Assembly: GCA_001816655.1 (NCBI GenBank)
Contig: MHCP01000028.1
Span: 30,309 to 94,308, forward strand
DNA length: 64,000 nucleotides
Origin: Candidatus Woykebacteria bacterium RBG_13_40_15
Lineage (GTDB): Bacteria > Patescibacteriota > Microgenomatia > Woykebacterales > RBG-16-39-9b
Direction: 5' to 3'
The notes beneath the pieces are model-generated. The model was not told the origin of the DNA, did not search any database, and saw nothing but the letters and a program-made list of their open reading frames with translations. This document shows, piece after piece, positions 2,706 to 58,687 of the stretch (position 1 is its first letter; the number at the start of each line of letters is the position of its first letter). A program made the translations under genes and the position numbers.

Positions 2706-2801
2706 ACTACGTAACAGAAATTCAAGAATTTTTAGATCGCTGCGCGCTCTGCGACCATTTTATGGACTTGGTACTCCCGCATACTGCAACCACTAAAGTG
2801 G
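2706..2801 (+). repeat. divergent copy E of the structured intergenic repeat (opposite orientation to A)
   Basis: ctacgtaacagaaattc...ttggtactcccgcatactgcaaccactaaagtgg aligns to copy D (ctccgtaactaaattc...ttaggtactctcgagttctgcgaccactaaagtgg). Its central hairpin region is expanded. Confidence 0.45.
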
Positions 2802-2867
2802 GCTAAACACAGGATCCAAGATCGCTTCAAGTAATTCCTCAACCACGTATAACTTCTATCTTAAAGC

Positions 2868-2900
2868 GAAAGAGGCCTCGGAAATTCCAAGGCCTCTTGA
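2868..2900 (-). terminator. GC-rich hairpin downstream of the island-1 ORF
   Basis: aagaggcctcggaaattccaaggcctctt is a perfect 9-bp stem just past the stop of the 2936..3295 (-) ORF. The U-tract is weak. Confidence 0.35.
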
Positions 2901-2935
2901 TTCATCGCTACTCCTCCCCACACACCCCATCTGCT

Positions 2936-3295
2936 CTAAGAAGGAGCGTGCCTAGCTCTATGGAAACCGCAGTTAAGGCAGGTGATACCGAGATCGTCTC
3001 CCCCCTTAACCAGGGATTCCTTTTTATTGCACTTGGGACATCTCACACTGATCAGCACTACTGGGCCTTGATGCCCTTTCGGCGGCATTTCGGAAAGGAC
3101 TTGTACCACTGTTGCCTTCTGGTTGAGCCTTCTCTCCAACCTCGCCGGATCTTTTTCACCCCCGTTCACAATTATCAGAATATCACCGCATATCCGGATT
3201 CTAGCCCTTCCTGGGAGTTTGATGAGTCTCGCCGCCGCTCTCGCTTCAGGCGTCAGCAGCAACAAACCACTTAACATCCTTGTATGGGATTCCAT
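2936..3295 (-). CDS. hypothetical zinc-ribbon protein (GC-rich island 1)
   Basis: 119-aa ORF with paired CxxC (CPKCNKK...CLNCG). High-GC codon usage unlike neighbouring genes. The opposite-strand ORF 2897..3274 is low-complexity and rejected. Confidence 0.45.
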   Translation of the reverse strand: MESHTRMLSGLLLLTPEARAAARLIKLPGRARIRICGDILIIVNGGEKDPARLERRLNQKATVVQVLSEMPPKGHQGPVVLISVRCPKCNKKESLVKGGDDLGITCLNCGFHRARHAPS

Positions 3296-3757
3296 GGCGC
3301 TCTCCTCATCCTGTAAACTTGGGCAACAAAAAACTCACCCGTAAGGGCGAGTCTTGTGTCGCTTATACCACCTTACTTTCCCGATCTGTTACCAAATCGG
3401 GACTATCTAGAACCTCTCGCCTCAAGACCGCTCAAGATTTATCCTGAGCTCACCGAAGGACAAGGTCCATCACGCTGTAACGGGCGCTCCCGGGAAAATC
3501 TATTTACCCACCGAAGCTTTGGCGAAGGCGGGCTTTCAATTCCCCTGCTCCGCAGTGAATGGTTGGGCTAGTCACCTGCCGGGCTTCCACCTTACCCCAG
3601 CTCTCTGTCAGGTTTTCAACACCAACCCCTTCTGCATCATGCGCATTTATCTATTTAATTCGTTTGTTAGTATAAGGAATTTATAACGGCGTGTCAAATG
3701 GGTGGGCAAGCGGCCTCTGCACATCGGTCGAGAGGCCGCTCAGTCTTGTCCAGTTCG

Positions 3758-4231
3758 TTACGCCACTTTGTCCCGCCAAAACCACAAGCCGTTGAACGTA
3801 TCGAGATACGCCTCGAAGATCTCGACGAGCATCCCTAGAGCCTCCTCAGACAGAAGATAGGCCTCGAGAGTCTCTGCCGCTAATAGCTGGAAGGAAACAA
3901 GACCATCGGAACCGCTGATCCTTGAAATAGTCAGCAGATCCTCCGACTGCAACCTCCTTAGATTTGCGAGCAGAAAACAGGCGATTGACACCGCCCTTGT
4001 CCTCTCATCACACCTCCCATCAACTGCACTGAGAACGAGCTTTTCGGCGATTTCCTCCGAAAGTCCGTTTGGCGCAATACGCTCAACTAACTCCTGTAGC
4101 TCTGGCAGCTGAAGCGACACCGCCTGAACGATTACGGGGAAGATTCTCTCCACTATCCATCCTTTCCGCCACCGCCTCTTCCCCACCGCAGCGCGTCGTA
4201 CAATGTTAACAAAAAATCGAACATTTTTCAA
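3758..4231 (-). CDS. hypothetical protein (GC-rich island 1)
   Basis: 157-aa ORF in a ~60% GC block. No recognisable domain. Confidence 0.4.
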   Translation of the reverse strand: MKNVRFFVNIVRRAAVGKRRWRKGWIVERIFPVIVQAVSLQLPELQELVERIAPNGLSEEIAEKLVLSAVDGRCDERTRAVSIACFLLANLRRLQSEDLLTISRISGSDGLVSFQLLAAETLEAYLLSEEALGMLVEIFEAYLDTFNGLWFWRDKVA

Positions 4232-4491
4232 CCCATAGCTTTGGCCCTAGTACATTGATGTTATACGAGAGAAACGATAGAATATCGATATGCTGAAGGT
4301 TGGAATTGTTGGGGCGTAACCGGAAAAAGTGAGGCTACCAGAATACCCTTTAAGTTCAAATTAAGAATCCCAAAAACCTAGAAAAGAAACCAGAATTATT
4401 GAAAGAGACTCTCTCGGAAGAGTTGTTACTAGTCGGCATCTTTAAAATACTCTTATCTCTCTAAATTTATGAGTAGGCCTACTCTTTTTGT

Positions 4492-14512: not shown

Positions 14513-14635
14513 AAGGTTATTATAACGTGAATTGGTCGATTAGTTAATCTTTATGTTATAATCTTTTCGTCCAAAACCGACGGACAATCAGCTAAGAGAT
14601 CAAACCAGCGAAGCTGGTGGGAAGGACAGAGAAAA

Positions 14636-15271
14636 ATGGCACCCAAAAAGGAAGAGCGAAGCAAAACGATCATACGAAGAATAATCGCTGTCGCCTGTGT
14701 TCTTTTTCTAGTCGCTAGCGGCTTCTTGGGGTTGGCGGTCAGAAATATTCTCACGCCAGCAGGAGCCGCCGCCGAAGAGACCGTCACCAAAGACGATGTT
14801 TGGCTGTCTCAAGGAGCCTCTGTACTACCGGAGTGGGGCGTCGTCTGTGGCATCAGAACACAACCGGTCTCGATGGACGATTTCCACGCAAAGACTTCCG
14901 AAACACCAATCGTGTTCTTAACCGACTTGAAGGATACTACCTGCTGCGGAAGCGATTGGGGAAGTACGCTAAAGATCGTCTATCTCGACATAAACCAGGA
15001 CCCTCCCATCCAAGCAGAGGTGGTCGTCGCCAAAGCAAAGGGCTATCAATACATAGGAAGACGCACTCTCGACAGGGGCACCAGCGGCAAAGACACCGGC
15101 ACTATCACGGTAGAGCTAGCCGCCGACTACAGCTCAGGTGGAAAGAGGGTCGAAGTGATCTTAGGCTTGGTCTTTGGAGGTATATTTGCCCTTGCCGGGA
15201 TAAGAGCTCTGGCCGTCTTGATTATCTACTTGAGGGCTACAGGACCGAAATCGGAAATCGACGTCGGCTGA
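14636..15271 (+). CDS. hypothetical membrane protein (GC-rich island 3)
   Basis: 211-aa ORF with N-terminal and C-terminal TM segments and high-GC codons. The overlapping Arg/His-rich frame 14800..15435 is rejected. Confidence 0.45.
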   Translation: MAPKKEERSKTIIRRIIAVACVLFLVASGFLGLAVRNILTPAGAAAEETVTKDDVWLSQGASVLPEWGVVCGIRTQPVSMDDFHAKTSETPIVFLTDLKDTTCCGSDWGSTLKIVYLDINQDPPIQAEVVVAKAKGYQYIGRRTLDRGTSGKDTGTITVELAADYSSGGKRVEVILGLVFGGIFALAGIRALAVLIIYLRATGPKSEIDVG

Positions 15272-15462
15272 GGGAAGAGATCATTCGGACTCGTGCGGGG
15301 CGTGCGGAACCAGCAACACTGCGCGCCCTGCTTCCCAATCCCCAATTTTCACATTTCATTAAATCAAAACGCTACAAATGTACACACAAATGTAATGTAC
15401 ACACCAGGAGTGTACAATGTTTTAACCGACCTTAGATGATTAGTCGGCGTTAATAAAAAAAC

Positions 15463-15637
15463 CGCTATTACGGCAGCTGGCGTCTTAAAACTTGCAAAAA
15501 TACAAAGAGGAGACGGAAACTGAACGATTAGAGAATTTCCGAGGATGTCCCGAAGTATTTTTGCAAAGTTTTACAGCCAGCGAAGTTTAGCGGAAGTTTT
15601 GGTACCACCTTTCCAAAAAGGTGGTAAAAGTAGTTTA
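15463..15637 (+). ncRNA. candidate structured sRNA / repeat, copy 1 of a 2-copy family
   Basis: ~88% identical to 41758-41926. Long stem gctggcgtcttaaaacttgcaaaaata / tatttttgcaaagttttacagccagc. 3' hairpin ccacctttccaaaaaggtgg followed by an A/T-rich tail. Confidence 0.45.
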
Positions 15638-23849: not shown

Positions 23850-24061
23850 AGTAAGCTTGTCAAATCCATTTATGGTGAGCTTGTCGAACCATCAGGCGAT
23901 TTTAATCCTTTCGATACTTAAAATCAATTACTTAATGAGCGGATGGGACTTTTAGTCGCTAATAATTTCGAAAGATAAAGTTGTTACAGAAAGATCCAAT
24001 TGACTTTCCACAATTTCTAAAACAAAATAAAAAGGCTAGATAAAAAACACTAGAGGGCACC

Positions 24062-24092
24062 TTGACAGCTAAAATAATAGCCAGTCTATGAA
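24062..24092 (+). promoter_or_regulatory. putative promoter of ParB-like gene
   Basis: TTGACA at 24062-24067, TATGAA at 24087-24092 (19-nt spacer), SD gaaggagg, ATG at 24108. Confidence 0.3.
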
Positions 24093-24107
24093 GAAGGAGG
24101 GCCGATC

Positions 24108-25409
24108 ATGGCAAAGAAAAAAGCGGCTGGTCAGCCCCCTAACGAGGCTGACTTTACCTTTCCTGAACAAGATACGAAGCTAGACTTCCGTGTAATCAAT
24201 ACCGTTTCGCAACCACGCAAGGAATTCCCCGATATACGAGAGCTAGCTGATAGCATCGCAAGACACGGCTTGCTCTACCCCCTAGTCATCCTAAAACTCG
24301 ATGAGGAGCAATGCAGAAAGTACTTGGGGAACCTAAACGCAATCTGGGAGAGTGAGCACTGTATCGAAGAGCTAACCGTGGTACGCGAGGGGAAAAAGCG
24401 CATTTTCTATCTCCTCCTTGCCGGAGAGCGCCGGCTACGTGCTTATCGCCACTTGTGGAAGAAAGGCTGCAGCGATTGCCTGGAAGTCTACGGCAAGGAG
24501 AAACGCGGCACGTGCTTCAGACGGCACATTTCGGTAGAGGGAATGATACCCACCAGAATCTGCGAAAACATGCCGATTCACGAGGCACTAATCCTACAGA
24601 TGATCGAGAACACGAGCCGTGTCCAGCTATCCCTCAATGATGAAGCACGCGGCCTGGCCTATCTCTACAGAACCTTTCGGATGGCCGATCCCGCTCTTAC
24701 CGTGAAGGACTTCGCTCGTCACTTTGGACGAGGAGAAACCACTGTTAGAAGTGCTCTTCGCTTCTGCAAGTTACCACCCGAGATCCAAGGTGCTGTCGAC
24801 AACGGTAATGATTACGGCAAGCTTGAGTTTGGAATAGCCGTCCAACTTGCCAGACTTCAGGAACACGGTTGCGACGAGGAAGAGCTCCTACACCGTATGA
24901 AAACAGCGCAGCTCGACAGAACCACGGTCCCCGATTTCCGTCAGTCCGTGACGAGCTACCTGCAATTCCTGAGAGGGCAGGGGTGTCTTTTCGATAGCGA
25001 TGTAAGTAGGCGACTTGCAGCACTTGGACAGCACAAACAAATAGTCGAGCGACACATTCTTGGAGCGCTTTACACCCAGCTCCAATACATGTTGACAGTG
25101 ATCCGTCTGTTTGAGAACGGTGATCTTGGAATGGAAGACTCTCCGTTCTCTGTGAGAAGCCCAGTCAAAGTATACCTTCGAGTAGTTCAAACTCTCGCGC
25201 AAGCCCTTCCTCACATGCGCCAGTTCCTGCCGGAGAAAGACCTAGCGATGATTGGGGCAACTTTGGCAGAAGGATTAGAGGTCACACGCATTCTCGAAGC
25301 AGCCTTAGCGGAAGCGAAAGAGACCGGAACGGAAGCACCAGGACCGGAAGAAAAGGAGGTAGGGATCCCGGTTGGTGCTCCTGGGGGCAACTTGCATCAG
25401 CAGGATTAG
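24108..25409 (+). CDS. ParB/Srx-like nuclease-domain protein with Cys-rich insertion (GC-rich island 4)
   Basis: LLAGERRLRAYR is the ParB GERRxRA motif. A downstream Cys-rich segment (GCSDC...GTCFRRH...RIC) sits before the MIENTSR helix. 433 aa with high-GC codons. Confidence 0.6.
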   Translation: MAKKKAAGQPPNEADFTFPEQDTKLDFRVINTVSQPRKEFPDIRELADSIARHGLLYPLVILKLDEEQCRKYLGNLNAIWESEHCIEELTVVREGKKRIFYLLLAGERRLRAYRHLWKKGCSDCLEVYGKEKRGTCFRRHISVEGMIPTRICENMPIHEALILQMIENTSRVQLSLNDEARGLAYLYRTFRMADPALTVKDFARHFGRGETTVRSALRFCKLPPEIQGAVDNGNDYGKLEFGIAVQLARLQEHGCDEEELLHRMKTAQLDRTTVPDFRQSVTSYLQFLRGQGCLFDSDVSRRLAALGQHKQIVERHILGALYTQLQYMLTVIRLFENGDLGMEDSPFSVRSPVKVYLRVVQTLAQALPHMRQFLPEKDLAMIGATLAEGLEVTRILEAALAEAKETGTEAPGPEEKEVGIPVGAPGGNLHQQD

Positions 25410-25495: not shown

Positions 25496-25846
25496 GTGAT
25501 AGACGAAGAATTCCAAAAACTAGTTTCAAACGCACTAGAATCATTACCCACTTTTTTTAAAGAAAAACTTGATAATGTAGATGTAGTGGTGGGAGATTGG
25601 CCAAGCCCCGATTTATCAAAAGGGAGGCTTTTGCTTGGGCTTTATCAAGGAGTTCCAAAAACTCGGCGTGGGACAGGGTACTCTTTTGTTTTACCCGATA
25701 AAATAACGATTTTTAAAGGTCCCATTGAGATTTTTTCGAAAGGAAACAGCGAATCAATTAAGGAAATTGTGGCCGATACAGTCCAACACGAAATCGCCCA
25801 CCATTTTGGAATAAGTGATAGTAGATTAAAAGAATTAAAAACCTAG
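25496..25846 (+). CDS. zincin-like metallopeptidase (DUF1025-type)
   Basis: HEIAHH (HExxH) near the C-terminus. AT-rich native-like composition. Confidence 0.55.
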   Translation: MIDEEFQKLVSNALESLPTFFKEKLDNVDVVVGDWPSPDLSKGRLLLGLYQGVPKTRRGTGYSFVLPDKITIFKGPIEIFSKGNSESIKEIVADTVQHEIAHHFGISDSRLKELKT

Positions 25847-25916
25847 GGTCGACCTCTCTCCTTTGCGCGAGATCTCCCCTAACTTGTAGCAACTCGTTTC
25901 CTCCCCTCCTTTCTCA

Positions 25917-26171
25917 TCAGACCAATCCTTCCGCCTCAGCATACTCCTGCAGCACTCGACACGCTTCTCGAGTCAGCCCCCGCACCTCTAGAGAGCCGGA
26001 TGCGAGTTCTAGATCTCCAACCGTGATTATACCCGCTGCATTCGCCGCTTGGAGCGTCTTTTCAGCTATTTCCGAAGCTAGCCTGCTACCGTCGTTACTC
26101 TGTCTAACCACGATCTTTTCCGTAACCAATAGAAGGTCAGCAGCTCTAATTGTTCTTCCGCCTCCTGGCAT
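25917..26171 (-). CDS. hypothetical protein (GC-rich island 5)
   Basis: 84-aa ORF with high-GC codons. No recognisable domain. Confidence 0.4.
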   Translation of the reverse strand: MPGGGRTIRAADLLLVTEKIVVRQSNDGSRLASEIAEKTLQAANAAGIITVGDLELASGSLEVRGLTREACRVLQEYAEAEGLV

Positions 26172-26184
26172 AGGATCCCTCCTT

Positions 26185-26400
26185 TCACATGATCTCTATC
26201 TCGTCTCCCTTTTCAATCACTCTTTGGGAGAAAGCAGCTACGAGATTGCCGTTGACCTTAACAAACAAGCCGCAAGGGGTCTGCTCCACCTTCCGAAGAT
26301 ACTGGCAGACCCTTTCCACTGTCAAGCCAACGAACTCTCGCTCCACCTCTTCCCCATTACACAGAGTGACCTTTATGGTGTCCATACCCAAGGAAACCAT
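26185..26400 (-). CDS. ThiS/MoaD-like beta-grasp protein lacking C-terminal GG (GC-rich island 5)
   Basis: 71 aa. IKVTLCNGEEVE...VKVNGNLV...GDEIEIM follows the ThiS pattern (VNGexv...gDeveI) but ends EIM rather than GG. Confidence 0.45.
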   Translation of the reverse strand: MVSLGMDTIKVTLCNGEEVEREFVGLTVERVCQYLRKVEQTPCGLFVKVNGNLVAAFSQRVIEKGDEIEIM

Positions 26401-26677
26401 TTGAATTCTCCCCTCTTACTGCTGCAGTTTGCTATCTTCCGCTTGAAATATAAGACAGAGTTGGTGGAAATTATATCCCGCAGGAAACAATACGCAACAG
26501 GTAATGTTGCGGATTATACTGATTGGAATGGAAAAATGCAATAATACATTAGAATTTGCTTTTGAAGAAAATCGAAAAAGAAAAAGAGGAATCCTGCCGG
26601 ACTGCGACAAAACGCATAATCTCCGGCAGGGCATCTCCTCTCCAATCTTGCCTAGCGAAGTCCTGGGGACCGGTTTC

Positions 26678-27025
26678 CTACGCCGGTTCAGGGGTGCTGA
26701 TTGTGCTTGAAGTCCCCTTCCGTACAACCACACGCCTCACAAACCCCCTTCCCACCTCGATCACTAACCGAACCTCCCTTCTTCCCACCTTATCAAAGGA
26801 CTTGGCGACAGCCTTCACTGGTCCGGATAGGTAAGTCGATTCAACAACATCAGTACCATCCGGACACGTGGACCTGATGGTAGTAACAGGTCCGGTTCTT
26901 AGAAGACGGGTTTGCAACCCTGGTGGGCCTTCGATAACGATCTCACCACTAAGAACTCTTGACCCGCCCAAATACACCCTCACCTCTTCTAGCGGGTCGA
27001 CATCGCCTGATCCTAACACTGCCAT
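26678..27025 (-). CDS. hypothetical protein (GC-rich island 5)
   Basis: 115-aa ORF with high-GC codons. Alternative frames overlap. Confidence 0.35.
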   Translation of the reverse strand: MAVLGSGDVDPLEEVRVYLGGSRVLSGEIVIEGPPGLQTRLLRTGPVTTIRSTCPDGTDVVESTYLSGPVKAVAKSFDKVGRREVRLVIEVGRGFVRRVVVRKGTSSTISTPEPA

Positions 27026-27161
27026 CTTGAACCCCCTTGAGTTTCAACTAAGCTAAACGACTGCTTGGGAGATCGCGTGTAAAGTTCCCTTCTTTCCTGC
27101 TGACGAATTATATACATTGCAAAGAAAAAAGTAAATGCTATAAGACAGCTACCTGGAAAAA

Positions 27162-27494: not shown

Positions 27495-27523
27495 ATTTTA
27501 TGATTTGGGGGTTTGATTGTCAA
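27495..27523 (-). promoter_or_regulatory. leaderless-type promoter of ASCH gene
   Basis: Minus strand reads TTGACA-17nt-TAAAAT. The -10 lies 9 nt upstream of the ATG. Confidence 0.4.
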
Positions 27524-27641
27524 AAAGTGTTGGCGGCGGGCCTTTTGCGTCACGTACCACAATTTGGCCCGCCTAAGTAGTGCTACGCTGAAAATCGTAG
27601 TACCCTCGATAAAACGCGCGAAGGTCCTGTTCCACCTCCGG

Positions 27642-27860
27642 TCAGCATTGATCAACTATCTCCCTACCGACCCTCCTCTCGACTTCCGCTCGGGCACGAC
27701 GAAGAAGTTGAGACACTGGAGTAGCGGCGCTGAGAAAACAAGCCTGGAAGTAGCTGTAATCCTCCACCATCAACCTCCAGCCAGATTCCTCCTTAAGGAA
27801 AACCTCGTTTGGAGCAACGAGGTGGAAGACTGTTTGGCCTAACTTAAAGATATTTCTCAC
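27642..27860 (-). CDS. hypothetical protein (GC-rich island 6)
   Basis: 72-aa ORF in a short high-GC block. The opposite-strand ORF 27513..27842 is an alternative. Confidence 0.3.
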   Translation of the reverse strand: MRNIFKLGQTVFHLVAPNEVFLKEESGWRLMVEDYSYFQACFLSAATPVSQLLRRARAEVERRVGREIVDQC

Positions 27861-29746: not shown

Positions 29747-30208
29747 TTAGAGATTTAATTCCCTTCTCGATTGATCAGGAAAGTTTACTTCGTCAAAAAG
29801 GACGATTTGGCTTGGGACAACCTTGTAGAAATGGTGGTCTGTTACCCCCTCGACTATATCTTTTGGGGATAAGATAAATTTTGTTACAGTGGGAAACCTT
29901 TTGGCAAAAATCGCAAAGGCTTTGACTAGTTCAACACCTTTTACTTCGTGGCATTCTCCTTCAAACTGTAGCCCTCGTGTCTTATCGCCCAAAGTTTTGT
30001 GTGGTTTGACAATAGCACCGGCGACGTGAGGGTTTTTGGCAATTTCCAGGGAGTGGCGACGGTTAAAACGGGAAATAAAGTAGAGGTTGAAAGCACTATC
30101 GTAGGCAAACCAAACACTCGCTATCCAAGGTTTATTACCTTTGGCAGTAGCTATCTGCATTAAATTCGTTTCTTTCAAGTAATCTTTTATTAGTTTCTTC
30201 AAATCCAT
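29747..30208 (-). CDS. pyridoxamine 5'-phosphate oxidase-like FMN-binding protein
   Basis: PNPOx-like fold pattern (NLMQIATAKGNKPWIASVWF...). Start placed at MDLKKL (ATG 30206-30208). The longer ORF reads through into GC-rich island 7. Confidence 0.65.
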   Translation of the reverse strand: MDLKKLIKDYLKETNLMQIATAKGNKPWIASVWFAYDSAFNLYFISRFNRRHSLEIAKNPHVAGAIVKPHKTLGDKTRGLQFEGECHEVKGVELVKAFAIFAKRFPTVTKFILSPKDIVEGVTDHHFYKVVPSQIVLFDEVNFPDQSRRELNL

Positions 30209-30336
30209 GGAAGTGATTTTATCACTGATAGAGGTGTTGGGCAAATTAAAGTATGGTGGGGGGGGGAGAAGCGCTTCTCCATTCACTCCTACACCCCCAC
30301 CAGCGAGACGAAGGGCCTCTCATCCTTCGTCCGCCT

Positions 30337-30609
30337 TCAAACCGGATTTTCTCTTCTCTGCTCCTCCCTCTCCAACCACCGCTGCGTGGCTGCTAACAGA
30401 AGGGAGAGAACGCCGTAGATCAGGAGTATCCCTATTCCACTCCAGGCAGGCCATTTCCCGAAAATAGGGGCGGCGAGATAGACGAGGATTGAGACTCCTA
30501 CCCAGACAACTGTCCTCCAGCGTCCACGGAGCAGAAACGAAAGGGTCCCCGCTACACTAAGCAAGATTCGGTCCCAAATCGAAACACCCGCTCCTTCTTG
30601 CCAAATCAT
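30337..30609 (-). CDS. hypothetical small membrane protein (GC-rich island 7)
   Basis: 90 aa with two or three TM segments, high-GC codons, and SD taggaggtgaga upstream. Confidence 0.4.
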   Translation of the reverse strand: MIWQEGAGVSIWDRILLSVAGTLSFLLRGRWRTVVWVGVSILVYLAAPIFGKWPAWSGIGILLIYGVLSLLLAATQRWLEREEQRRENPV

Positions 30610-30711
30610 CTCTCACCTCCTAGTAAGATCTGAAAATAATAATACTGCAATATGAAAGCTAAAAACAAGTCTGCTTGATTGGTAAATTTGCGTAGAATGG
30701 AAATAGTCCAA

Positions 30712-36340: not shown

Positions 36341-36372
36341 AAACCTCCTATTGTTAGTAAAAATTTCCTAGC

Positions 36373-36450
36373 CCACGTTAGTGGTCGCAGCTTTCGAAAG
36401 TACCCAAATTACTTTTGCGATTAGCAAACGAATTTGGTTACGGAGAATGC
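36373..36450 (+). repeat. structured intergenic repeat element, copy B (between rpsB and tsf)
   Basis: CCACGTTAGTGGTCGCAG-CTTTC-GAAAGTACCCAAATTA-hairpin-CGAATTTGGTTACGGAGAATGC. Stems covary relative to copies A and C. Confidence 0.65.
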
Positions 36451-37202
36451 TATACTTTTGCTTCCTCGGCTACTTTCTTTACTTCTGCAACCTTTTCTTT
36501 CTTTTCGTGAAGGCTTCTGCCCTCTTTATAAAAGAGGGCGATTGTTTTAACAAGCAAAGAAACCGACTTTACAGAATCATCATTAGCGGCAACGGGATAA
36601 TTTACCTTTGTCGGATCCCCATTTGTATCGACCAAAGCAACGATTGGAATACCCATTTTATTTGCCTCACGAACCGCATTATCTTCTCTCTTGGCATCAA
36701 TAATAAAAAGGCAATCTGGAAGACGGTCCAAGCTCCTTATACCACCTAAAACTCGTATTAATTTGTCAATTTCCCGCTGCATAAGAAGCTGCTCTTTTTT
36801 TGTGTAGCGTCCCTCTGCAGTTTTTAACTCTTCCTCTAGATTTCCTAGTTTTTCGATTGTTTTTTTAACAGAATCAAAATTGGTTAAAAGCCCACCAAAC
36901 CAACGCTCCGTAAGAAACATTGCACCAGCTTCTTTTGCAGCCCCTTCTACAATCTCAGAAAGCTGCCTTTTGGTCGAAAGAAATAAAACAACGCCGCCAC
37001 GACTTGCTACTTCTTTTATAAATTCTGCCGCCCTCTCTAGTTGCTTTTCAGTTTTTTCTAAATCAATAATGTGGATACCAGATTGCTGGCCAAAAATATA
37101 TGGACTCATTTTTGGATTCCATCTTTTCGATTGATGGCCGAAATGAGCACCAGAATCAAGTAATTCTTCCATTGAAGGTAACTTTGCCATAATGACTCGC
37201 AC
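36450..37202 (-). CDS. rpsB: 30S ribosomal protein S2
   Basis: LLDSGAHFGHQSKRWNPKM... Confidence 0.9.
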   Translation of the reverse strand: MRVIMAKLPSMEELLDSGAHFGHQSKRWNPKMSPYIFGQQSGIHIIDLEKTEKQLERAAEFIKEVASRGGVVLFLSTKRQLSEIVEGAAKEAGAMFLTERWFGGLLTNFDSVKKTIEKLGNLEEELKTAEGRYTKKEQLLMQREIDKLIRVLGGIRSLDRLPDCLFIIDAKREDNAVREANKMGIPIVALVDTNGDPTKVNYPVAANDDSVKSVSLLVKTIALFYKEGRSLHEKKEKVAEVKKVAEEAKV

Positions 37203-39822: not shown

Positions 39823-39838
39823 ATTTTTAATTCGTAGC

Positions 39839-39915
39839 CCACTTAAGTGGTCGCAGTATCCAAGAGTACCTAAATAATCAAGGATTATCGAAGATTATTT
39901 TGTTACGTAGGATAC
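39839..39915 (+). repeat. structured intergenic repeat element, copy C
   Basis: CCACTTAAGTGGTCGCAG-TATCC-AAGAGTACCTAAATAA-hairpin-TTTGTTACGTAGGATAC. The outer stem TATCC/GGATA covaries with AACTC/GAGTT in copy A. Confidence 0.6.
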
Positions 39916-41029: not shown

Positions 41030-41700
41030 CCTCTTTGTGGATTTAGAATAGCACTAGTGTGGAAACTTGACAATCCCTGAAAAAGAAGATTTTTAAGTGG
41101 CTCTTGGGGTACAAAAAACTCTCCCAAACCATCCTTCGAAAATAAGAAGGATGACTTAAGAGAGGACCCGAGACGTCGCATTGTCAACATGAACGCCTCG
41201 GGCTTGATCCCTCTCCGTTGGGTCTGCATCATTGGTCTAGGGGCCGCTATAAAAAAGCTGCGTGCCGACGTATCAACGCGCAATCGTCCTTAGAAAGGAC
41301 ATTTGCCCCCGACTCAAGTTCCCAATCAGCCACCACTACCGACTATACCTCCATGCGTCAGCAGCGGCTAAGGATATAGACTGGGAACACTAGCAGGGCG
41401 GGTCTCTTCCGATCTTCTTCTCCAAGATCGCCTCCTTCTTACGTTGCAGAAAAGGACACCCTCCGGTAAACATCAGTCGCTGTCGGTCCTACCAGGGATC
41501 TTAACTTTCCGGATTATCGTTTCTTCCCTTGACTCTCGGACGAGCCTTTCTCCAAGCGCGGGGCGCCCATTAGGAGTGGAAGTGCCCTCTCCGGACTACT
41601 TACGGACCGTTCAGCTCCCTCAAAACTATCTCATCAAACTCCGCTTTGTGACACAGTCTTGAGGGATACGAAGGGTATAAAATAATCTTAAACCATTATA
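41030..41700. other. GC-rich (~57%) non-coding block, possible structured RNA
   Basis: No convincing ORF; the 87-aa frame 41020..41283 is low-complexity. Composition contrasts sharply with the flanking AT-rich genes. The ~170-nt repeat copy 2 follows immediately. Confidence 0.25.
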
Positions 41701-41757: not shown

Positions 41758-41926
41758 CGCTATTATGTAGCTGGCGTCTTAAAACTTGCAAAAATGTGAG
41801 AGAAACGGAAACTGACCGAAGAGAATTTCCGAGGCTCCCGAAACATTTTTGTTTAGTTTTACAGCCAGCGAAGTTTAGCGGAAGTTTTGGTACCACCTTT
41901 CCAAAAAGGTGGTAATAAAGATTTTA
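41758..41926 (+). ncRNA. candidate structured sRNA / repeat, copy 2
   Basis: Paralog of 15463-15637 with compensatory changes in the long stem (aaaaatgt/acattttt vs aaaaata/tattttt). Identical 3' hairpin ggtaccacctttccaaaaaggtggtaa. Confidence 0.45.
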
Positions 41927-42052
41927 AACACTCGGCAATCTATAGATTTTCACACGCTGGATAGTCCAGGTGTATGCTTCCTCAATTTCAAAATACTTCG
42001 ATATTTATTGAATCAAAAACAACCCCTCGCTTGTTGCAAATTTTAGAAATTT

Positions 42053-42370
42053 ATGCTAAAAAAGGAGCGACTGGCCAGGGCTGAAAAGGAGGCAGCCATG
42101 GTTACTATGTGCAAGGTGCCGACTGGCACCGAAGACACACTTCTTGCGGGACTGGGAGAGCTGGGAAAGGAGGTCGAGATAGCGGTCGCTACAGGAAGGC
42201 TAAACACAGAGAAGGGTATCACTGACGCCCTACGGGATGGCACAGTGCCAATAGCCGTAAGGCACCGAGTAGACGGCGTTCTTCCTCCGGAAAAGGCAGA
42301 GGCAATCAGAGCCTGGAGGAAGGAAGTCGAAGCAAGACTTCTTGGAGGAATTGGGATTGAGCGACCATAA
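42053..42370 (+). CDS. hypothetical protein (GC-rich island 8)
   Basis: 105-aa ORF with high-GC codons. The antisense ORF 42043..42375 is an alternative. Confidence 0.35.
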   Translation: MLKKERLARAEKEAAMVTMCKVPTGTEDTLLAGLGELGKEVEIAVATGRLNTEKGITDALRDGTVPIAVRHRVDGVLPPEKAEAIRAWRKEVEARLLGGIGIERP

Positions 42371-42450
42371 CACACCTGGCCAGTTCAAGTAGCGGCCTTG
42401 CTTCGCATGGAATGCGCAAACGGAGCAGGGCCGCTCAACTATTTACAAGA

Positions 42451-44421: not shown

Positions 44422-44541
44422 AAAAACAGCTTATTGTAGTTAATCAGAAAACAAATGAGAAAGTCAAATGGGAAATGGCAAGGGCAGGACACCATCCAAG
44501 CTACTCCGTAGATGGTGTCCTTAAACCCTCTCCATTTGCTC

Positions 44542-44883
44542 CTACTGCTTCGAGGCCTCCTTCTCCCGGGTCACTTCCTCATCGAGGTATCGGGCAATCT
44601 CCTGAAGAGCCGCCTCTCTTTCCGTACCACGGAGACGTGCAACGGAGAATTTCAGTTGGCCACTCGAGGAAGCGAGTCGTTCGAGTTTACCCAAACAGGG
44701 TTTTAGCTGCAGAATACCCTCCGCGAGGATGCCAAGCGCTGCACCACTTCTCTTCTCGGCCGGAATAGTTCTGGGAAACTGTATCTCCAGAACCCAGGAA
44801 AGCTTCAGTACTCGAAGTACAATCCCCCGCTTACTAGTCAAGAGCTCGTGGTTGCCTATTCTCCTAATGGAATATGGCCGCAT
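44542..44883 (-). CDS. hypothetical protein (GC-rich island 9)
   Basis: Start placed at MRPYSIRRIG, preceded by a perfect SD GGAGGGAGTTCC-ATG. A GC-rich hairpin (ggacaccatc...gatggtgtcc) lies downstream. Confidence 0.45.
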   Translation of the reverse strand: MRPYSIRRIGNHELLTSKRGIVLRVLKLSWVLEIQFPRTIPAEKRSGAALGILAEGILQLKPCLGKLERLASSSGQLKFSVARLRGTEREAALQEIARYLDEEVTREKEASKQ

Positions 44884-44979
44884 GGAACTCCCTCCTATTT
44901 CTTGGGCAACTGCCGAATAGATCAATTATCTTCCTTAAAGCAGACATTATTTTAACATAGTAGAAAAAGCAAAATGTTA

Positions 44980-46236
44980 TTAGCTAAGGTCAGGAGGACT
45001 TTCAGGAGGGTTTTGAGGAGGATTTAAAGTATTCGAAATTGCTTCTTTCAACTTCCCTTTCCTTTTCTCCCATATAACTAAAATAGCGATTAACGCTAGG
45101 ATTGCTACAACTACAAAGGCTGGTAAAGCTACTCTCAATATCCCTTGTAAACTTACTTCGCCAGCAAAAGCTGTAACCTGATACTCCTGCCGGCTCTTCG
45201 AAGCTTTTACGTCGATTTCTGCACCAAAAGTCTCTTCTCCAGATGTTAAATTTACCCCATGCTTACCTAAAGAGATGTCTTCAAATTTTACTATTCCTTC
45301 TTTGTCCGTAGTCGCTTCCTCCAAACCAGGATAAATCTTCACTTTTATTCCGGAGAGAGGTTTACCGGCTGGATCGGAGACTTTTATTTGGATAGAATAA
45401 CCCTTTGTTTTGAATGATAAAATTTTGCTAGTCGCGGCGTTGCCAGCCTCATCTGCACTTATAACTTTATAATAGTAAGTGGTCCCTGGAACAAGAAAAT
45501 TGCCGGAAAGATTGATAACTTGGCTAGTTCTTAATCCTCCGTTTGAGGCAGAAAGGCCAAGATTCTGGGAAATACCATAATTAACAGTTGAATTTGCTGG
45601 TTCATTGGTCTTCCAAGAAATTGTCGCCGAATTTAAACCAGGCTTGCTAACTTTTATATTTGAAATTACCGGGGCAGTCTTATCAACTGGTTTGGGGGTA
45701 GATGTAGATGTTACCGGGGCAGTCTTATCAACTGGTTTGGGGGTAGATGTAGTAGATGTAAAGCTGTAAGTTCCACCGCTTGATCCTGTCATTATGTTTA
45801 TTCCGTCATTAACTATTGCTGAGCCTCCTGAAAAAGAGACCGTGGCCAAGCCCGAGGAAACCTTGGCTCTGAAAGTCAGTGTTGCCAGTAGCTTGTCTCC
45901 AACTACCGGGCTTAAGGTTCCTCGACTGATTGTTATTGAACCTCCCCCACCACTACTTGGTGCTTCTATCTCGAATGCACTACCTGCTGAACTAATGCCA
46001 AGAAAATCCAATGAAGCTGTGGGATAAGTAAGGTTTGCTGTTACAGCGTTCGCGGGAGTTCCTCCCGTGTTAACTCGCACAGAAACAGAAAATGTTGCTC
46101 CTTGGACGACTGTAGCTGAGCCTGGTGACAAATAGAGACTGCCTCCAGCAAAAACTTTTGAAAGAGGGGCCAATGGGAAAATTAAAATTATAGAAACTAA
46201 ACCTGCTATTAACAACTTGGGCAGCTGTTTTATCAT
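44980..46236 (-). CDS. cohesin-like domain surface protein with fibronectin-III-like region and C-terminal TM anchor (anchoring scaffoldin-like)
   Basis: After the N-terminal signal/TM, the segment LYLSPGSATVVQGATFSVSVRV...LTYPTASLDF...GDKLLATLTFRAKVSSG...VSFSGGSAIVNDG fits the cohesin beta-sandwich pattern. C-terminal TM AFVVVAILALIAILVIW. Confidence 0.55.
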   Translation of the reverse strand: MIKQLPKLLIAGLVSIILIFPLAPLSKVFAGGSLYLSPGSATVVQGATFSVSVRVNTGGTPANAVTANLTYPTASLDFLGISSAGSAFEIEAPSSGGGGSITISRGTLSPVVGDKLLATLTFRAKVSSGLATVSFSGGSAIVNDGINIMTGSSGGTYSFTSTTSTPKPVDKTAPVTSTSTPKPVDKTAPVISNIKVSKPGLNSATISWKTNEPANSTVNYGISQNLGLSASNGGLRTSQVINLSGNFLVPGTTYYYKVISADEAGNAATSKILSFKTKGYSIQIKVSDPAGKPLSGIKVKIYPGLEEATTDKEGIVKFEDISLGKHGVNLTSGEETFGAEIDVKASKSRQEYQVTAFAGEVSLQGILRVALPAFVVVAILALIAILVIWEKRKGKLKEAISNTLNPPQNPPESPPDLS

Positions 46237-46237: not shown

Positions 46238-48055
46238 TTATGTTCCCCACCTTGAAAGTAGTATACTTAAATCAAATATATCAACTATCCCACTACTATT
46301 CAAATCTGCCGCCACATTGCTGCTTCCCCACCTAGTCAGAAGGATGCTTAAATCAAAGATGTCTACTTTCCCATCACCGTTTATATCCGCTGTCTTTCTG
46401 GTTGTCGCTGAAGCGGTGCTTGAAGAGGTAGAAGCACTTCCGACTTTATCAATTGCTTTGACGTAGTAACTATAAGAAGTTGCTGGCGTTAACCCAGTGT
46501 CGTTATAACTAGTGGTGTTAACTAAACCCGTGTTAATCTTAATGCCGCCGCGGTAAATATCATAACCGGCCACTCCGATCGCATCTGTACTAGCCGTCCA
46601 GGTAAGATTGATTTGAGTACCGCTGACAGCAGTAGCCGTCAATCCAGTTGGTGCTGATGGCAGTGTATTATCAGTAGTAACGTTTATTGTAGCCGCATTA
46701 GTATTACCAGCGTTATCATAGGTGGTTGCCAAAATAGCGTGATTCCCATCGGCCATTGTGGTCGTATCCCAGCTGTATAAGTAGGGGGAGGATATGTCGG
46801 TAACTTTTAAGCTTCCGTCGATACGAAACTCAACCTTTGAAATTCCATTGGCATCTGAGGTTGTAACCGCTATATTAACGGTCCCACGTAGAAAAGCGGC
46901 GGCTGCTGGCGAGGTAATAGAAGCGGTCGGAGAAGTATTGTCAACCGTCACCGCCACAGCGGAAGAGTTACCCACATTACCAGCATTATCATAGGCTTTG
47001 GCTGATAAGCTGTGCGAACCATCGGTCACCGCTGTTGTATCCCAGGAATAAGCAAAGGGGGAAGACGTGTCAGTAGATTTCAACCCCCCATCAACATAAA
47101 ATTCGACTTTTGTTACACCGACAGTGTCGGAAGCAGTCGCTGTTGCATTCACCGTTCCCCGAACAAGTGCTCCACCAACAGGTGCGGAGATGTAAACTGT
47201 GGGAGCATTATTATCAACGATAACATTAATCGTTGCTGTAGTTGTATTATTCGAGTCATACGCTTTTGCTGATATGGTGTGACCGCCATCAGTTAATGTC
47301 GTGGCATCTAAAGAATATGCGTAGGGCGTCGTTGTGTCGATACTTTTGGAACTGCCATCCACCAAGAATTCTACTTGGGTTACGCCTAAATCATCTGAAG
47401 CAGTCGCCGTAACATTAACTGTTCCTTTAACAGTTGAGCCGGCCGCTGGATTGGTAATCGTTACCGTTGGCGGCGGATTGACAACAGTGAAAGTACCGCT
47501 AGTTGTATTACCTAAAATGTCGATGTTGTCCGTACTTCGCACGATTGCAGATCCGGCTGCAAAACTTACCGCTGTTGCACCAGGCACATATTTTGCTTTA
47601 AAAGTAACTGTCGCCACGAGTTGATCACCAGTAACCGGTGTCGCACCACCGGCTAACGCTCTGGCGATCCGGATTGAGCCAGCCCCACCGCTACCTTCCG
47701 CGACGGTTGTAAACGAGGTACCGGCGGGCGGATTATCAAGACTGACAAAATCTAGCTTTGTAGCATCATACGTTAAGTTAGCTTGGACGGCATTAACCGG
47801 TTCAGTATTACTGTTTTCTCTGACCTGGACAGTGAAGTTTGTTCCTTGGTTAATGCTCTGAGTTGCTGGTGAAATGGATAAAGTTATCCCAGCCAGGGCC
47901 CTACTTCGAAATTCCCGGGCGTTTAGCACCGCAATTACCGTCAGCGGGATAGAAATCAAAATAATTAGGGTAGCTAAAATCACCGGTAAATCTTTTGGGT
48001 TATAAGGTGGGTTGATAATTCGGCGGTATTTTCTAAGCAACTCGGCAGTTTTCAT
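46238..48055 (-). CDS. cohesin-like + 4x Ig-like repeat + FN3-like + C-terminal type-I dockerin protein (adaptor scaffoldin-like)
   Basis: N-terminal cohesin-like segment (ISPATQSINQGTNFTVQV...GDQLVATVTFKAKYVPG). Four ~90-aa repeats follow (TVKGTVNVTATASDDLGV...YAYSLD). The protein ends DINGDGKVDIFDLSILLTRWGSS...DLNSSGIVDIFDLSILLSRWGT, a duplicated Ca-loop dockerin. Confidence 0.6.
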   Translation of the reverse strand: MKTAELLRKYRRIINPPYNPKDLPVILATLIILISIPLTVIAVLNAREFRSRALAGITLSISPATQSINQGTNFTVQVRENSNTEPVNAVQANLTYDATKLDFVSLDNPPAGTSFTTVAEGSGGAGSIRIARALAGGATPVTGDQLVATVTFKAKYVPGATAVSFAAGSAIVRSTDNIDILGNTTSGTFTVVNPPPTVTITNPAAGSTVKGTVNVTATASDDLGVTQVEFLVDGSSKSIDTTTPYAYSLDATTLTDGGHTISAKAYDSNNTTTATINVIVDNNAPTVYISAPVGGALVRGTVNATATASDTVGVTKVEFYVDGGLKSTDTSSPFAYSWDTTAVTDGSHSLSAKAYDNAGNVGNSSAVAVTVDNTSPTASITSPAAAAFLRGTVNIAVTTSDANGISKVEFRIDGSLKVTDISSPYLYSWDTTTMADGNHAILATTYDNAGNTNAATINVTTDNTLPSAPTGLTATAVSGTQINLTWTASTDAIGVAGYDIYRGGIKINTGLVNTTSYNDTGLTPATSYSYYVKAIDKVGSASTSSSTASATTRKTADINGDGKVDIFDLSILLTRWGSSNVAADLNSSGIVDIFDLSILLSRWGT

Positions 48056-55279: not shown

Positions 55280-55439
55280 TTGAGAACCATTATATCAAAA
55301 AGAAAAACGACCCGTTTCCGAGTCGCTTCTCTTCCTAAGAAAACCTCTAATGAGATTTGCTTGGGAAGAACCCCGGTGTCGTGACAAGTCACTTCTTGAC
55401 TCGTACGTCCTGGGGCACTCCTTGCTATTCGGTTCTCGA

Positions 55440-56042
55440 TCAGCAGCCCGGGCTCCCTGGGTTCCAGTGGATGACAACCGTCCCGTCTTCCAACTTCTGG
55501 AAGGTGTAAAGCGGGGCAAGATCGTCTTCCACCAGTGCCACCAGATCCGCAGGCAAATCGTACCGTCCGAGCTTCACACTGGTGGGTCCGCAGGAAGTCA
55601 CACCCAGCGAACTGATGGCGACGTGGGTGAGTACCTCAGCAGTTGTCACGTTGCCCTTCGCCAATTCCTGTTGAGCTTGGGCGATCAAGGAGTCGAAATA
55701 GCCCCGAGCAGTGAAGTCTCTGCCTCCTCCCTCCACACCACTCTTCTCGCTGTACCAGGATGAATGAGTATACAGGTCGGCCTCGACGATATACATGCGT
55801 CCCTGTAAGTCACCGACACTCCCGCTCAGGGTGTAAGGGTACCCGACCTCAGTCCCTCCGACTCTGGCTTGCAGATCTTCGATTTGCTTCTGCTGCTCGT
55901 CGATACGGTCCTGCTGAGCAACGGCCGTTGCTTGTATGTCACCGATCTGACTCCGCAGGGCCTCCTCGTTGTCTGAGCCTCCTCCACAGGCCACTAGGAA
56001 TATGGCGGTCAGAACTGTGGCTATAACCAGAAAACGCCTCAC
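55440..56042 (-). CDS. hypothetical lipoprotein (GC-rich island 10a)
   Basis: Lipobox MRRFLVIATVLTAIFLVAC. 200 aa with high-GC codons. Confidence 0.5.
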   Translation of the reverse strand: MRRFLVIATVLTAIFLVACGGGSDNEEALRSQIGDIQATAVAQQDRIDEQQKQIEDLQARVGGTEVGYPYTLSGSVGDLQGRMYIVEADLYTHSSWYSEKSGVEGGGRDFTARGYFDSLIAQAQQELAKGNVTTAEVLTHVAISSLGVTSCGPTSVKLGRYDLPADLVALVEDDLAPLYTFQKLEDGTVVIHWNPGSPGC

Positions 56043-56226: not shown

Positions 56227-56289
56227 TCTACGGACTACTCATAATTTATTGCGGGGAAAGTTTTTGGGAAAATTTGTTTGGTCCGAAAA

Positions 56290-58657: not shown

Positions 58658-58687
58658 TTCGATCTAAGATTTAAGATGTAAGATATA

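Follow-up and report, generated by a model that had tools for sequence, protein, structure and literature searches.

As a class of molecular switch, ParB-type CTP switches have been recognised only recently. To our knowledge, characterised orphans among them are few (Noc, KorB, VirB and BisD), and we know of almost no exploration of chromosome biology in the CPR. Orphan ParBs are homologues encoded outside a parAB operon, and Boxes I to III of the ParB fold are its base-contacting and phosphate/Mg-contacting motifs, the NTP bound being not reliably predictable from sequence or AF3 (Kaljevic et al. 2025, PMC12704722). The orphans surveyed in that work are often linked to mobile elements, and Box III is often missing from them (PMC12704722). 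Sliding clamps that regulate genes have functional precedents in KorB, VirB and BisD (PMC10770331, PMC12409273). A search of the literature returned nothing relevant on the ParAB content of CPR or on zinc-containing ParB domains; in the main text of PMC12704722 the word ‘zinc’ appears nowhere but in the title of a work it cites and the words ‘Patescibacteria’ and ‘insertion’ do not occur, and none of the CPR lineage names looked for was found in its supplements.

The window analysed here, a stretch of 64,000 nucleotides, contains a complete gene for a 433-aa orphan ParB-like protein at 24108..25409 (stop codon included; ATG start according to the ORF list) on the + strand, on which all features given below also lie. 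The protein is a 100% match to the NCBI entry ‘hypothetical protein A2172_02260’, and this match, together with the ~311 cluster representatives that are homologous to it (E<=1e-30), indicates that the gene is real. A Shine-Dalgarno sequence, GGAGG (24096..24100), can be read directly 7 nt before the ATG. The upstream gene, encoding a PHP-domain protein, is divergent and separated by a 258-nt spacer, a layout that implies a promoter of its own for the ParB-like gene, as had been predicted. The sole upstream consensus match on the strand of the gene is the sigma-70-like TTGACT-17-CAAAAT (9/12; 24000..24028), and a TTGACA at 24062-24067 (+) is without a well-spaced -10 element. However, the promoter consensus scan of the upstream region gave 3 matches versus 1.8+/-1.3 in shuffled sequence, i.e., no excess, and because consensus matches are no commoner than in shuffles the TTGACT-17-CAAAAT element is put forward as a candidate promoter only. 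The ParB-like gene is a solitary gene in housekeeping surroundings. Its product consists of a ParB_N domain, followed by a ParB-type helix-turn-helix (HTH) and then by a helical C-terminal region; the AF2 model of the whole protein has a pLDDT of 83.8 overall and >90 for residues 20-290, and the N-terminal tail, whose length and sequence vary across the family, is modelled at <50.

The ParB N-terminal (NTP/CTPase-fold) domain spans residues ~20-175 (24165..24632) and encloses two inserts, as seen by Pfam, AF2 and Foldseek. Pfam ParB_N (PF02195) scores 28.8 bits, above the gathering threshold of 26.3, in an alignment restricted to residues 32-67 because of the inserts, and it matches 47/76 family members (Pfam and NCBIfam counts refer to 76 members, conservation counts to 146, and comparisons to a set of 64 canonical ParBs). 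The domain is modelled with pLDDT 85-98 and retrieves the ParB-CDP/CTPgS structures 7bnk, 7bnr and 6sdk at E~1e-8; more generally, the best PDB matches of the AF2 model by Foldseek are CTP/CDP-bound ParB, Noc, Spo0J and KorB. All three nucleotide-binding boxes are strongly conserved in the family. Box I, or C-motif, QPRKEF (24210..24227), has Q35 in 144/146 and R37 in 145/146 members, and the equivalents of both residues are invariant in the 64 canonical ParBs. Box II, or P-motif, is the arginine patch GERRLRA (LLAGERRLRAYR, G106-A112, 24423..24443) on which the original prediction had rightly based the assignment to ParB; among the 146 members G106 is kept in 145, E107 in 133, R108 in 137, R109 in 146, R111 in 132 and A112 in 123, and no second GERRxxA exists anywhere in the 64-kb window. 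Box III, the MIENTSR helix, is likewise present as the variant QMIENTSR (24597..24620), with E167 in 132/146 and N168 in 146/146 members, and with a family-specific Q164 in 142/146. Where canonical ParBs have the Q-R of ENxQR, the family has lost one residue and carries H or Y, a change that might alter or abolish hydrolysis.

The two inserts distinguish the domain from that of canonical ParBs. Insert 1 (~30 aa, residues ~64-95, 24297..24392) lies between Boxes I and II, where QxR and GERR are a median of 71 aa apart in the family, versus 41 in canonical ParBs; the AF2 model shows a helix at residues 66-80, and Y72, N77 and W80 are conserved in the family. Insert 2 (~23 aa) follows Box II and precedes MIENTSR, and is the Cys-rich segment noticed originally (GCSDCLEVYGKEKRGTCFRRH); its residues C121, C124, C136 and H140 form a putative zinc knuckle, C121-x2-C124-x11-C136-x3-H140 (24468..24527), with two short helices modelled at pLDDT 95-98. 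The median distance from GERRxRA to EN is 50 aa in the family versus 27 in canonical ParBs. The ligand tetrad occurs in an all-or-none manner, 104 members having CCCH and 7 CHCH (111/146 together), and ~30/146 being without insert 2 and hence without all four ligands. Four conserved and co-occurring ligands are what a structural zinc site requires, and we infer from this pattern that the CCCH insert binds zinc.

The protein also carries a ParB-type HTH domain at residues 178-254 (24639..24869), contrary to the original description of a C-terminal region with no obvious HTH. Pfam HTH_ParB matches these residues at E=2e-4 with 21.8 bits, just under its cut-off of 22.6, and is found in 55/76 family members, the lowest E among them being 2e-10; Foldseek superimposes this part of the model on 6s6h and 6y93, the DNA-binding domains of ParB and Noc (TMt 0.72), and PDB sequence alignments of the protein bring up Spo0J (1vz0), Noc and Myxococcus ParB. 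The recognition surface is changed. When DNA contacts are mapped after Jalal et al. 2020 (PMC7383237; Caulobacter numbering), the equivalents of three residues contacting parS or the Noc-binding site (NBS) have been replaced in the family (Q162 by L/I/V, R173 by P/E/A and R204 by L/V/I), the position-173 equivalent being E210 in the window protein, where canonical ParB has an invariable R. In contrast, the equivalents of G170, K171, S172 and G201, which make backbone or phosphate contacts, are kept, and new conserved arginines (R204, R214 and R249) appear in the HTH region of the family. Since 3/6 of the DNA-contacting residues conserved in ParB and Noc have been lost, binding could be weak or non-specific.

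These changes, the altered Box III and a Cys cluster that could be redox-active raise the alternative that a ParB fold has come to serve, away from DNA, as an ATP-using kinase or reductase (as in SerK or Srx) or as a Cys/His redox or metal sensor with a degenerate HTH, and ParB folds binding ATP or GTP are indeed known (PMC12704722). We regard this as rather improbable, given that the HTH fold and the phosphate- or backbone-contacting residues are retained, that the HTH region has gained conserved arginines, and that Foldseek detects no significant resemblance to sulfiredoxin (E=0.47).

Searches for a DNA site were carried out in the window and in the family loci. No parS (TGTTNCACGTGNAACA) with <=2 mismatches was found in the window or in 20 family loci, a search that covered ~330 kb of family loci, i.e., a fraction of each genome. 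Similarly, the 20 loci have no perfect 14-16-bp palindrome in common, near-palindromic 16-mers recurring in the window and inverted repeats near the ParB-like gene gave no signal, and no inverted-repeat half-site is common to the regions upstream of 16 family genes.

Beyond the HTH, the long alpha-helical C-terminal region that had been predicted is all helical in the AF2 models, in which residues 255-410 (24870..25337) form a family-specific region of ~155 aa with five helices. No Pfam family matches it, ParB_C (PF23552) is found in 0/76 members at E<=0.01, and Foldseek returns no PDB fold match (best E 0.56). Modelled alone, the region reaches a pLDDT of 67.8, i.e., low confidence, and dimerisation through it is an assumption because it is modelled with only moderate confidence. 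It contains a loop motif conserved in the family, G-x-L-G-x2-D-S-P-F-S-x2-S-P-x-R (residues 338-354, 25119..25169), in which G338 is kept in 123, G341 in 111, S345 in 108, P346 in 106, S348 in 114 and S351 in 115 of the 146 members. The protein ends in a non-conserved acidic/Pro-Gly tail (residues 411-433, 25338..25406), which is modelled at pLDDT <50 and missing from the homologues in the alignment.

An exhaustive HMM search recovered a full-length family of ~410 aa with ~311 cluster representatives (50% identity) at E<=1e-30, and every informative source name in it belongs to a CPR lineage; the family, as yet unnamed, is so far known only from metagenome genomes of CPR/Patescibacteria, the members checked being all annotated as “hypothetical” or nameless. 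The impression of a tiny family given by a word-indexed search, which found 5-6 relatives, is thereby set aside. When the 146-sequence alignment was used in a word-indexed search, the result was swamped by canonical ParBs and only 4 proteins were returned. The NCBIfam models noc and parB_part match 64/76 and 63/76 members, respectively. As had been noted, the gene has no parA beside it: the ParA Walker A motif (KGGxGK[ST]) is missing from the 64-kb window and from the 10 kb on either side of the family gene in 19 further loci (284 kb). All-against-all BLAST of ORFs within +/-8 kb revealed no conserved neighbour in 17 loci, the sole shared neighbourhood being a local synteny of three loci that are related to each other and of which two carry the label Levyibacteriota. 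No related protein was recovered from IMG/VR contigs or from phage records, and plasmid collections yielded only canonical ParB/Noc at ~26% identity.

The distribution bears on whether the protein is instead a working chromosomal ParB of CPR, with its own parS-like site and a ParA encoded elsewhere, or a ParA-less SMC loader. Such a role would fit the shared architecture of N-terminal domain plus HTH, the conserved NTP boxes, the chromosomal housekeeping surroundings in every locus examined and the single-copy occurrence across CPR lineages, as well as a vestigial N-terminal peptide, G-[IL]-x2-L-A-x-L-L-G, which is present in a subset of members and resembles the canonical LGRGLxALLG. However, the ParA-binding motif [LFI]G[KR]G[LFI], present in 39/64 canonical ParBs, is absent from the window protein and from 145/146 members (the one match being incidental and internal), ParB_C is lacking, the TIGR00180 score of 45.5 bits does not reach the cut-off of 58.45, and the ~330 kb of family loci contain no parS-like site. 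Moreover, homology searches show that canonical ParBs occur in CPR too (Doudnabacteria, Paceibacterota and ‘Patescibacteria group’), and the family may thus be a paralogue rather than a replacement of canonical ParB. A chromosomal ParB role consequently appears unlikely, if the most serious of the competing functions. An ordinary ParB with an HTH, the finding that the original prediction had named as telling against it, is borne out in part: HMM and structure comparisons do place the protein with ParB, Noc and KorB, HTH included, but it falls below TIGR00180, has neither the ParA peptide nor ParB_C, and has changed parS contacts.

The original prediction held that the gene was GC-rich and compositionally foreign, and that it encoded a stand-alone ParB/Srx nuclease-domain protein of DndB- or DUF262-like type, horizontally acquired and acting in anti-phage defence or DNA modification. 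The gene does have a GC of 0.524 and a GC3 of 0.555, the latter at z ~+2.3 relative to the other ORFs of the window (0.376+/-0.078), it has no adjacent parA, and ParB-fold proteins are known in defence systems (PMC12704722). The compositional claim holds only in part: the gene is one of ~10 scattered GC-rich patches in the window, and across loci the GC3 of family genes follows that of the host genome (r=0.91), an argument that the gene has long resided there. In 14/16 genomes the family genes also have a raised GC at the first and second codon positions, an amino-acid composition effect. Non-coding RNA was rejected as a source of the GC-rich patches, Rfam and tRNA scans of the window being empty. 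As to function, the protein has HTH_ParB and no DndB or DUF262 match in Pfam, PADLOC gave only a 31-residue mad1 match at E=0.028, and Foldseek similarity to BrxU/GmrSD is negligible (E=0.31, probability 0.12). Neither a defence gene nor a methyltransferase, desulfurase or ATPase partner is found near the gene, and no neighbour is conserved across the 17 family loci, which together with the absence of relatives from phage records and IMG/VR, and the presence of only canonical ParB/Noc on plasmids, leaves no sign of an anti-phage nuclease. The defence-nuclease view is thus largely refuted, and we consider it very improbable.

Even less probable, to the point of being negligible, is a TasParB-like partner of RNA-guided TIGR-Tas systems, which are known from phages and parasitic bacteria. 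CPR bacteria do have TIGR-Tas systems, and HHpred links tasParB genes to ParB-like CTPases (PMC12045711), but at this locus there is neither a tasA operon nor a flanking TIGR array: the surroundings of the gene are free of tandem or TIGR-like arrays, the ten small repeats detected by TRF being elsewhere in the window, and no tasA-like or other conserved neighbour is present.

We therefore favour, with reasonable though far from complete confidence, an orphan DNA-binding protein of the ParB/Noc/KorB class, whose N-terminal domain would be an NTP switch, most likely using CTP, and which would recognise a DNA site other than parS. The protein would dimerise through its C-terminal helices and be loaded by its HTH at a site distinct from both parS and the Noc-binding site; on binding NTP the two N-terminal domains would then close to form a clamp, which would be reopened by hydrolysis with the participation of the E167/N168 motif. 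The zinc knuckle and the adjacent helix insert would represent a structural addition to the surface of the N-terminal domain, and might serve for gating or for interactions peculiar to the lineage. As the ParA-activating peptide is absent, no ParA-driven segregation is expected, and by analogy with Noc, KorB, VirB and BisD a role in chromosome organisation (e.g., the loading or positioning of other factors) or in long-range gene regulation appears more likely. A bolder and decidedly tentative extension would be that a lineage-wide, zinc-bearing NTP clamp of ParB type with its own centromere-like or regulatory site has replaced ParABS in part of the ultra-small CPR/Patescibacteria, taking over chromosome organisation (e.g., SMC loading or origin positioning), the knuckle and helical tail being new surfaces for gating or for partners.

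CPR genomes are small, so that any conserved DNA-organising factor in them is notable. The family can be viewed as a natural experiment in which the nucleotide pocket has been kept, the DNA-reading residues rewired and the ParA interface lost, and in which a putative zinc module has been placed directly after the phosphate-binding helix. For annotation, its members are best described as orphan ParB-family HTH proteins, and not as partition proteins, nucleases or defence genes.

Among known systems, canonical ParB/Spo0J shares with the window protein the N-terminal NTP-binding fold, the QxR, GERRxRA and E-N motifs and an HTH directly after them, with ~26-29% identity over residues ~30-255 (structures 7bnk, 6sdk, 1vz0 and 6t1f). 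In contrast, canonical ParBs have neither of the two N-domain inserts (~30 aa, and ~23 aa with CCCH), they possess an LG[KR]GL ParA-binding peptide, ParB_C and an adjacent parA, three features that the window protein lacks, and their C-terminal domain measures ~70 aa as opposed to the 155-aa helical region found here. Taken together with the TIGR00180 score and the changed DNA contacts, these differences led us to reject an assignment to canonical ParB; the ParA-binding peptide, ParB_C and several residues contacting parS/NBS have evidently been lost, as judged from the sequences.

Noc (TIGR04285) is likewise an orphan ParB-family protein that is not in an operon with parA, and it gives both the best NCBIfam E-value (1.2e-15) and the best global superposition (7nfu, TMt 0.65). 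Orthology was nevertheless rejected, as the window protein scores 57.5 bits against a TIGR04285 cut-off of 315 and does not keep the specificity residues Q173, K179, K184 and R201 of Noc, which correspond to E210, A216, K221 and G242; only the position-184 equivalent is a lysine in the window protein, and the family consensus there is E/D. In addition, Noc is a Firmicutes protein without a zinc insert, as opposed to this CPR family. Noc also has an N-terminal amphipathic membrane-targeting helix; in the N-terminal tail of the family, which is variable and modelled at low pLDDT, no conserved helix of this kind stands out so far. Sulfiredoxin and SerK are single-domain ParB folds without an HTH, in contrast with the window protein, which has one.

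KorB, VirB and BisD resemble the window protein as ParA-independent orphans that combine a ParB CTPase with an HTH, and the KorB structure 8qa8 is matched by Foldseek at E=3.6e-6; however, they reside on plasmids and ICEs whereas the window family is found among chromosomal housekeeping genes, the Pfam KorB domain matches 1/76 family members, and a KorA-like partner is absent. Finally, the orphans described in PMC12704722 are similar in having a CTPase fold, in being encoded outside parAB, in lacking the ParA-binding motif and in leaving room for domains not covered by Pfam, and the window family differs from them by its housekeeping context and by having kept the E-N of Box III.

The ORF at 24108..25409 (+), read from the ORF list, opens with an ATG that has GGAGG 7 nt ahead of it, and encodes an orphan ParB-like protein of 433 aa in which all the originally quoted motifs (LLAGERRLRAYR, GCSDCLEVYGKEKRGTCFRRH and MIENTSR) are found, and which is 100% identical to the NCBI 'hypothetical protein A2172_02260' of Candidatus Woykebacteria bacterium RBG_13_40_15. 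This identity places the window in a metagenome-derived genome of the CPR/Patescibacteria. Sequence comparisons and the predicted structure identify it as a protein of the two-domain ParB/Noc/KorB type, not a lone ParB-N 'nuclease' domain. In Pfam, ParB_N scores over its gathering threshold (28.8 vs 26.3 bits) and HTH_ParB, at residues 178-254, is slightly sub-threshold (21.8 vs 22.6 bits); 'ParB-like partition protein' families are matched in PHROGs, and a PDB sequence search retrieves Thermus Spo0J, Noc and Myxococcus ParB with alignments spanning the recognition helix. The AlphaFold2 model (pLDDT 83.8 overall, >90 for residues ~20-290) matches, over N-domain and HTH domain alike, PDB structures of CDP/CTPgS-bound ParB (7bnk, 7bnr, 6sdk), Noc (7nfu, 7ol9), Spo0J (1vz0), Caulobacter ParB (6t1f) and KorB (8qa8), the PadC matches being far weaker and any similarity to the GmrSD enzyme BrxU or to sulfiredoxin insignificant; with an HTH present, a sulfiredoxin identity is also rejected. 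Since both kinds of match cover a ParB-type HTH domain, the original prediction erred in seeing no obvious HTH.

Word-indexed searches recovered merely 5-6 relatives. When 1.84 billion cluster representatives were scanned exhaustively by HMM, 311 of them fell into the family at E<=1e-30, nearly all aligned over their full length of ~400 aa, and every protein name available for them is 'hypothetical protein'. Where a source name is informative, it is that of a CPR lineage (Woykebacteria, Curtissbacteria, Levyibacteriota, Parcubacteria, Brennerbacteria, Paceibacterota and Saccharibacteria), the rest being generic MAG labels (three 'uncultured Gammaproteobacteria', several just 'bacterium'). The three are TPA MAGs (loci L008, L009 and L022; CAZKMF01, CAYXJO01 and CAZFRF01) whose full-length members have 34-51% identity and lie in low-GC flanks (~0.34-0.42); their 'Gammaproteobacteria' titles look doubtful, since the informative names elsewhere all belong to the CPR. 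Of 76 members, 55 match HTH_ParB in Pfam, 47 match ParB_N and none ParB_C, and the TIGR00180 and Noc models match 63 and 64, respectively, at E<=1e-3.

Residues of 146 family members were compared with those of 64 canonical ParBs. The nucleotide-contact motifs of the N-domain, described by Kaljevic et al. 2025 (PMC12704722) as the base-contacting and phosphate/Mg-contacting motifs of the ParB fold, are largely kept: Box I through Q35 (144/146) and R37 (145/146), and Box II through G106, E107, R108, R109, R111 and A112, with R109 invariant, the arginine patch originally noted. Box III is kept in part (E167 in 132 and N168 in all 146), the canonical Q-R having given way to H or Y, and Q164 is family-specific and almost invariant. 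Two inserts widen the spacing of the boxes: a ~30-aa helix separates Box I from Box II (71 aa vs 41 in canonical ParBs), and ~23 aa separate Box II from Box III (50 vs 27). The second is the Cys-rich segment originally noted; it is modelled at pLDDT 95-98 and carries a conserved tetrad, C121-x2-C124...C136-x3-H140, whose four ligands occur all-or-none (CCCH in 104 members, CHCH in 7, insert absent in ~30), a co-occurrence pattern that in sequence terms is typical of metal coordination.

The ParA-binding peptide [LFI]G[KR]G[LFI] occurs, incidentally, in 1/146 family members vs 39/64 canonical ParBs. A minority (~13%, including P0182, P0185, P0187, P0217, P0219, P0222 and P0235) carries an N-terminal G-[IL]-x2-L-A-x-L-L-G peptide, absent from the window protein, which is similar to the latter half of the ParA-interaction motif LGRGLxALLG of canonical ParB and may be a remnant of canonical ParB ancestry. 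ParB and Noc share six conserved DNA contacts (Jalal et al. 2020, PMC7383237). In Caulobacter numbering, the family retains the equivalents of G170, K171, S172 and G201 and partly that of N178, while Q162 is replaced by L/I/V and R204 by L/V/I; at specificity position 173, where parS binders invariably have R and Noc has Q, the family has P, E or A and our protein has E210. New conserved arginines of the HTH region are R204, R214 and R249 (433-aa protein numbering). The C-terminal region is entirely helical over ~155 aa, as predicted, with a conserved loop G-x-L-G-x2-D-S-P-F-S-x2-S-P-x-R, and has no match in Pfam and no fold match in PDB.

The gene lies in ordinary chromosomal surroundings. 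The opposite strand upstream encodes Mfd, Pth, YbeY, S21, a HIT protein and a PHP-domain protein; the downstream side holds a Zincin_1 gene, a trio of small GC-rich ORFs, and ASCH, EamA and PNPOx domain genes. The small ORFs, 25917-26171 (-, 84 aa, just downstream of Zincin_1), 26185-26400 (-, 71 aa) and 26678-27025 (-, 115 aa), have no credible match in Pfam, NCBIfam, PADLOC or PHROG, the second giving weak, sub-threshold TGS/ThiS-like beta-grasp matches (E ~0.1). Divergent orientation and a 258-nt spacer imply a promoter dedicated to the gene, as had been proposed, but a consensus scan for one did no better than chance. As originally stated, the gene is not beside parA: the whole 64 kb encodes neither a ParA Walker A motif (KGGxGK[ST]) nor another protein with GERRxxA, and no ParA or second ParB lies within 10 kb of family genes (284 kb of loci). 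Homologue surroundings differ and are equally ordinary (e.g., smpB/infC; cutA with a tRNA-binding domain gene; ribonucleotide reductase with cobalamin adenosyltransferase), and when ORFs lying within 8 kb were compared all against all across 17 loci, no neighbour proved conserved, apart from local synteny shared by three related loci (two labelled Levyibacteriota). The family was not found in 50,697 phage records or in IMG/VR contigs, and a plasmid collection yielded canonical ParB/Noc alone (~26% identity). The stand-alone defence-type ParB-N nuclease originally proposed thus fails its defining tests: no partner is conserved in the 17 loci, PADLOC gives just a negligible 31-residue mad1 match (E=0.028), and the ParB-type HTH is present.

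A foreign composition had also been proposed. The gene (GC 0.524, GC3 0.555) does stand out in GC3 (z ~ +2.3) against the other window ORFs (0.376+/-0.078), but it is not a unique GC-rich island, because there are ~10 such patches. Across the family, GC3 tracks that of the host (0.20-0.66, r=0.91), which favours a long stay in CPR genomes over recent import from beyond the group; transfer within the CPR into the RBG_13_40_15 genome could still have taken place. In 14/16 genomes the family gene has raised GC at the first two codon positions, an amino-acid composition effect. Window composition is bimodal, most ORFs having GC ~0.40 and GC3 ~0.33 and the scattered patches GC 0.51-0.57 (2801-4250, 14601-15400, 25801-27100, 27501-27850, 30201-30650, 41101-41650, 42001-42450, 44451-44900 and 55301-57000). 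Their long ORFs (e.g., 2897-3274 +, 3758-4231 -, 14636-15271 +, 42043-42375 -, 44542-44925 -, 55440-56042 - and 56451-56906 -) have no credible Pfam match, and the patches show no Rfam or tRNA match and no blastn similarity among themselves.

Several repeats were also observed. A direct repeat of ~160 nt (41758-41915 and 15463-15627, 88% identity) adjoins a GC-rich patch at each copy. An element of ~40-85 nt recurs at >=5 window places, with an inverted pair 100% identical over 65 nt (58686-58750 and 1636-1700) and related copies at 36369-36454, 39835-39875 and 2770-2807; it may be REP- or terminator-like, or else a small mobile element. A 45-nt unit is perfectly duplicated in tandem at 45666-45752 (1.9 copies, 100% match) within the 418-aa ORF 44980-46236. 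The consecutive large ORFs 46238-48055, 48097-50661 and 50726-54148 (all -; 605, 854 and 1140 aa) have in common a segment of ~150 nt, with 73-87% nucleotide identity, at the low-coordinate (C-terminal) end of each, which suggests that they are tandem paralogues sharing a C-terminal module.

On the observed architecture, conserved NTP motifs, Cys/His tetrad, missing ParA peptide and ParB_C, altered DNA-reading residues and stand-alone chromosomal context, a mechanism can be sketched from the well-studied ones of ParB, Noc and KorB. The protein would dimerise via its C-terminal helices and load through its HTH onto a specific DNA site; NTP binding would engage the N-domains into a clamp able to slide, and hydrolysis would reopen it. 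With R173, Q162 and R204 replaced, the predicted site should differ from both parS and the Noc-binding site; a site was sought in the window and the family loci and not found. The nucleotide used by a ParB fold is not predictable from sequence (Kaljevic et al. 2025, PMC12704722), CTP being the default expectation. The putative zinc knuckle would most simply be a structural brace for the added surface beside the phosphate-binding helix. Its cellular role may lie in chromosome organisation or in regulation.

Among known systems, a canonical ParB is rejected on the NCBIfam TIGR00180/parB_part score, well short of the curated cut-off (45.5 vs 58.45), and on the absent ParA peptide and ParB_C; Noc is rejected on a score far short of its cut-off (57.5 vs 315) and on a residue 173 equivalent other than Q. 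The TasParB arrangement, which belongs to TIGR-Tas systems (PMC12045711), is excluded because no tandem or TIGR-type array lies close to the gene. No description of a zinc-binding insert in a ParB N-domain, or of a CPR-specific ParB family, was found in the literature searched. The protein falls into the 'orphan ParB' category defined by Kaljevic et al. 2025 (PMC12704722) and is of relevance to researchers on CTP switches and the cell biology of the CPR.
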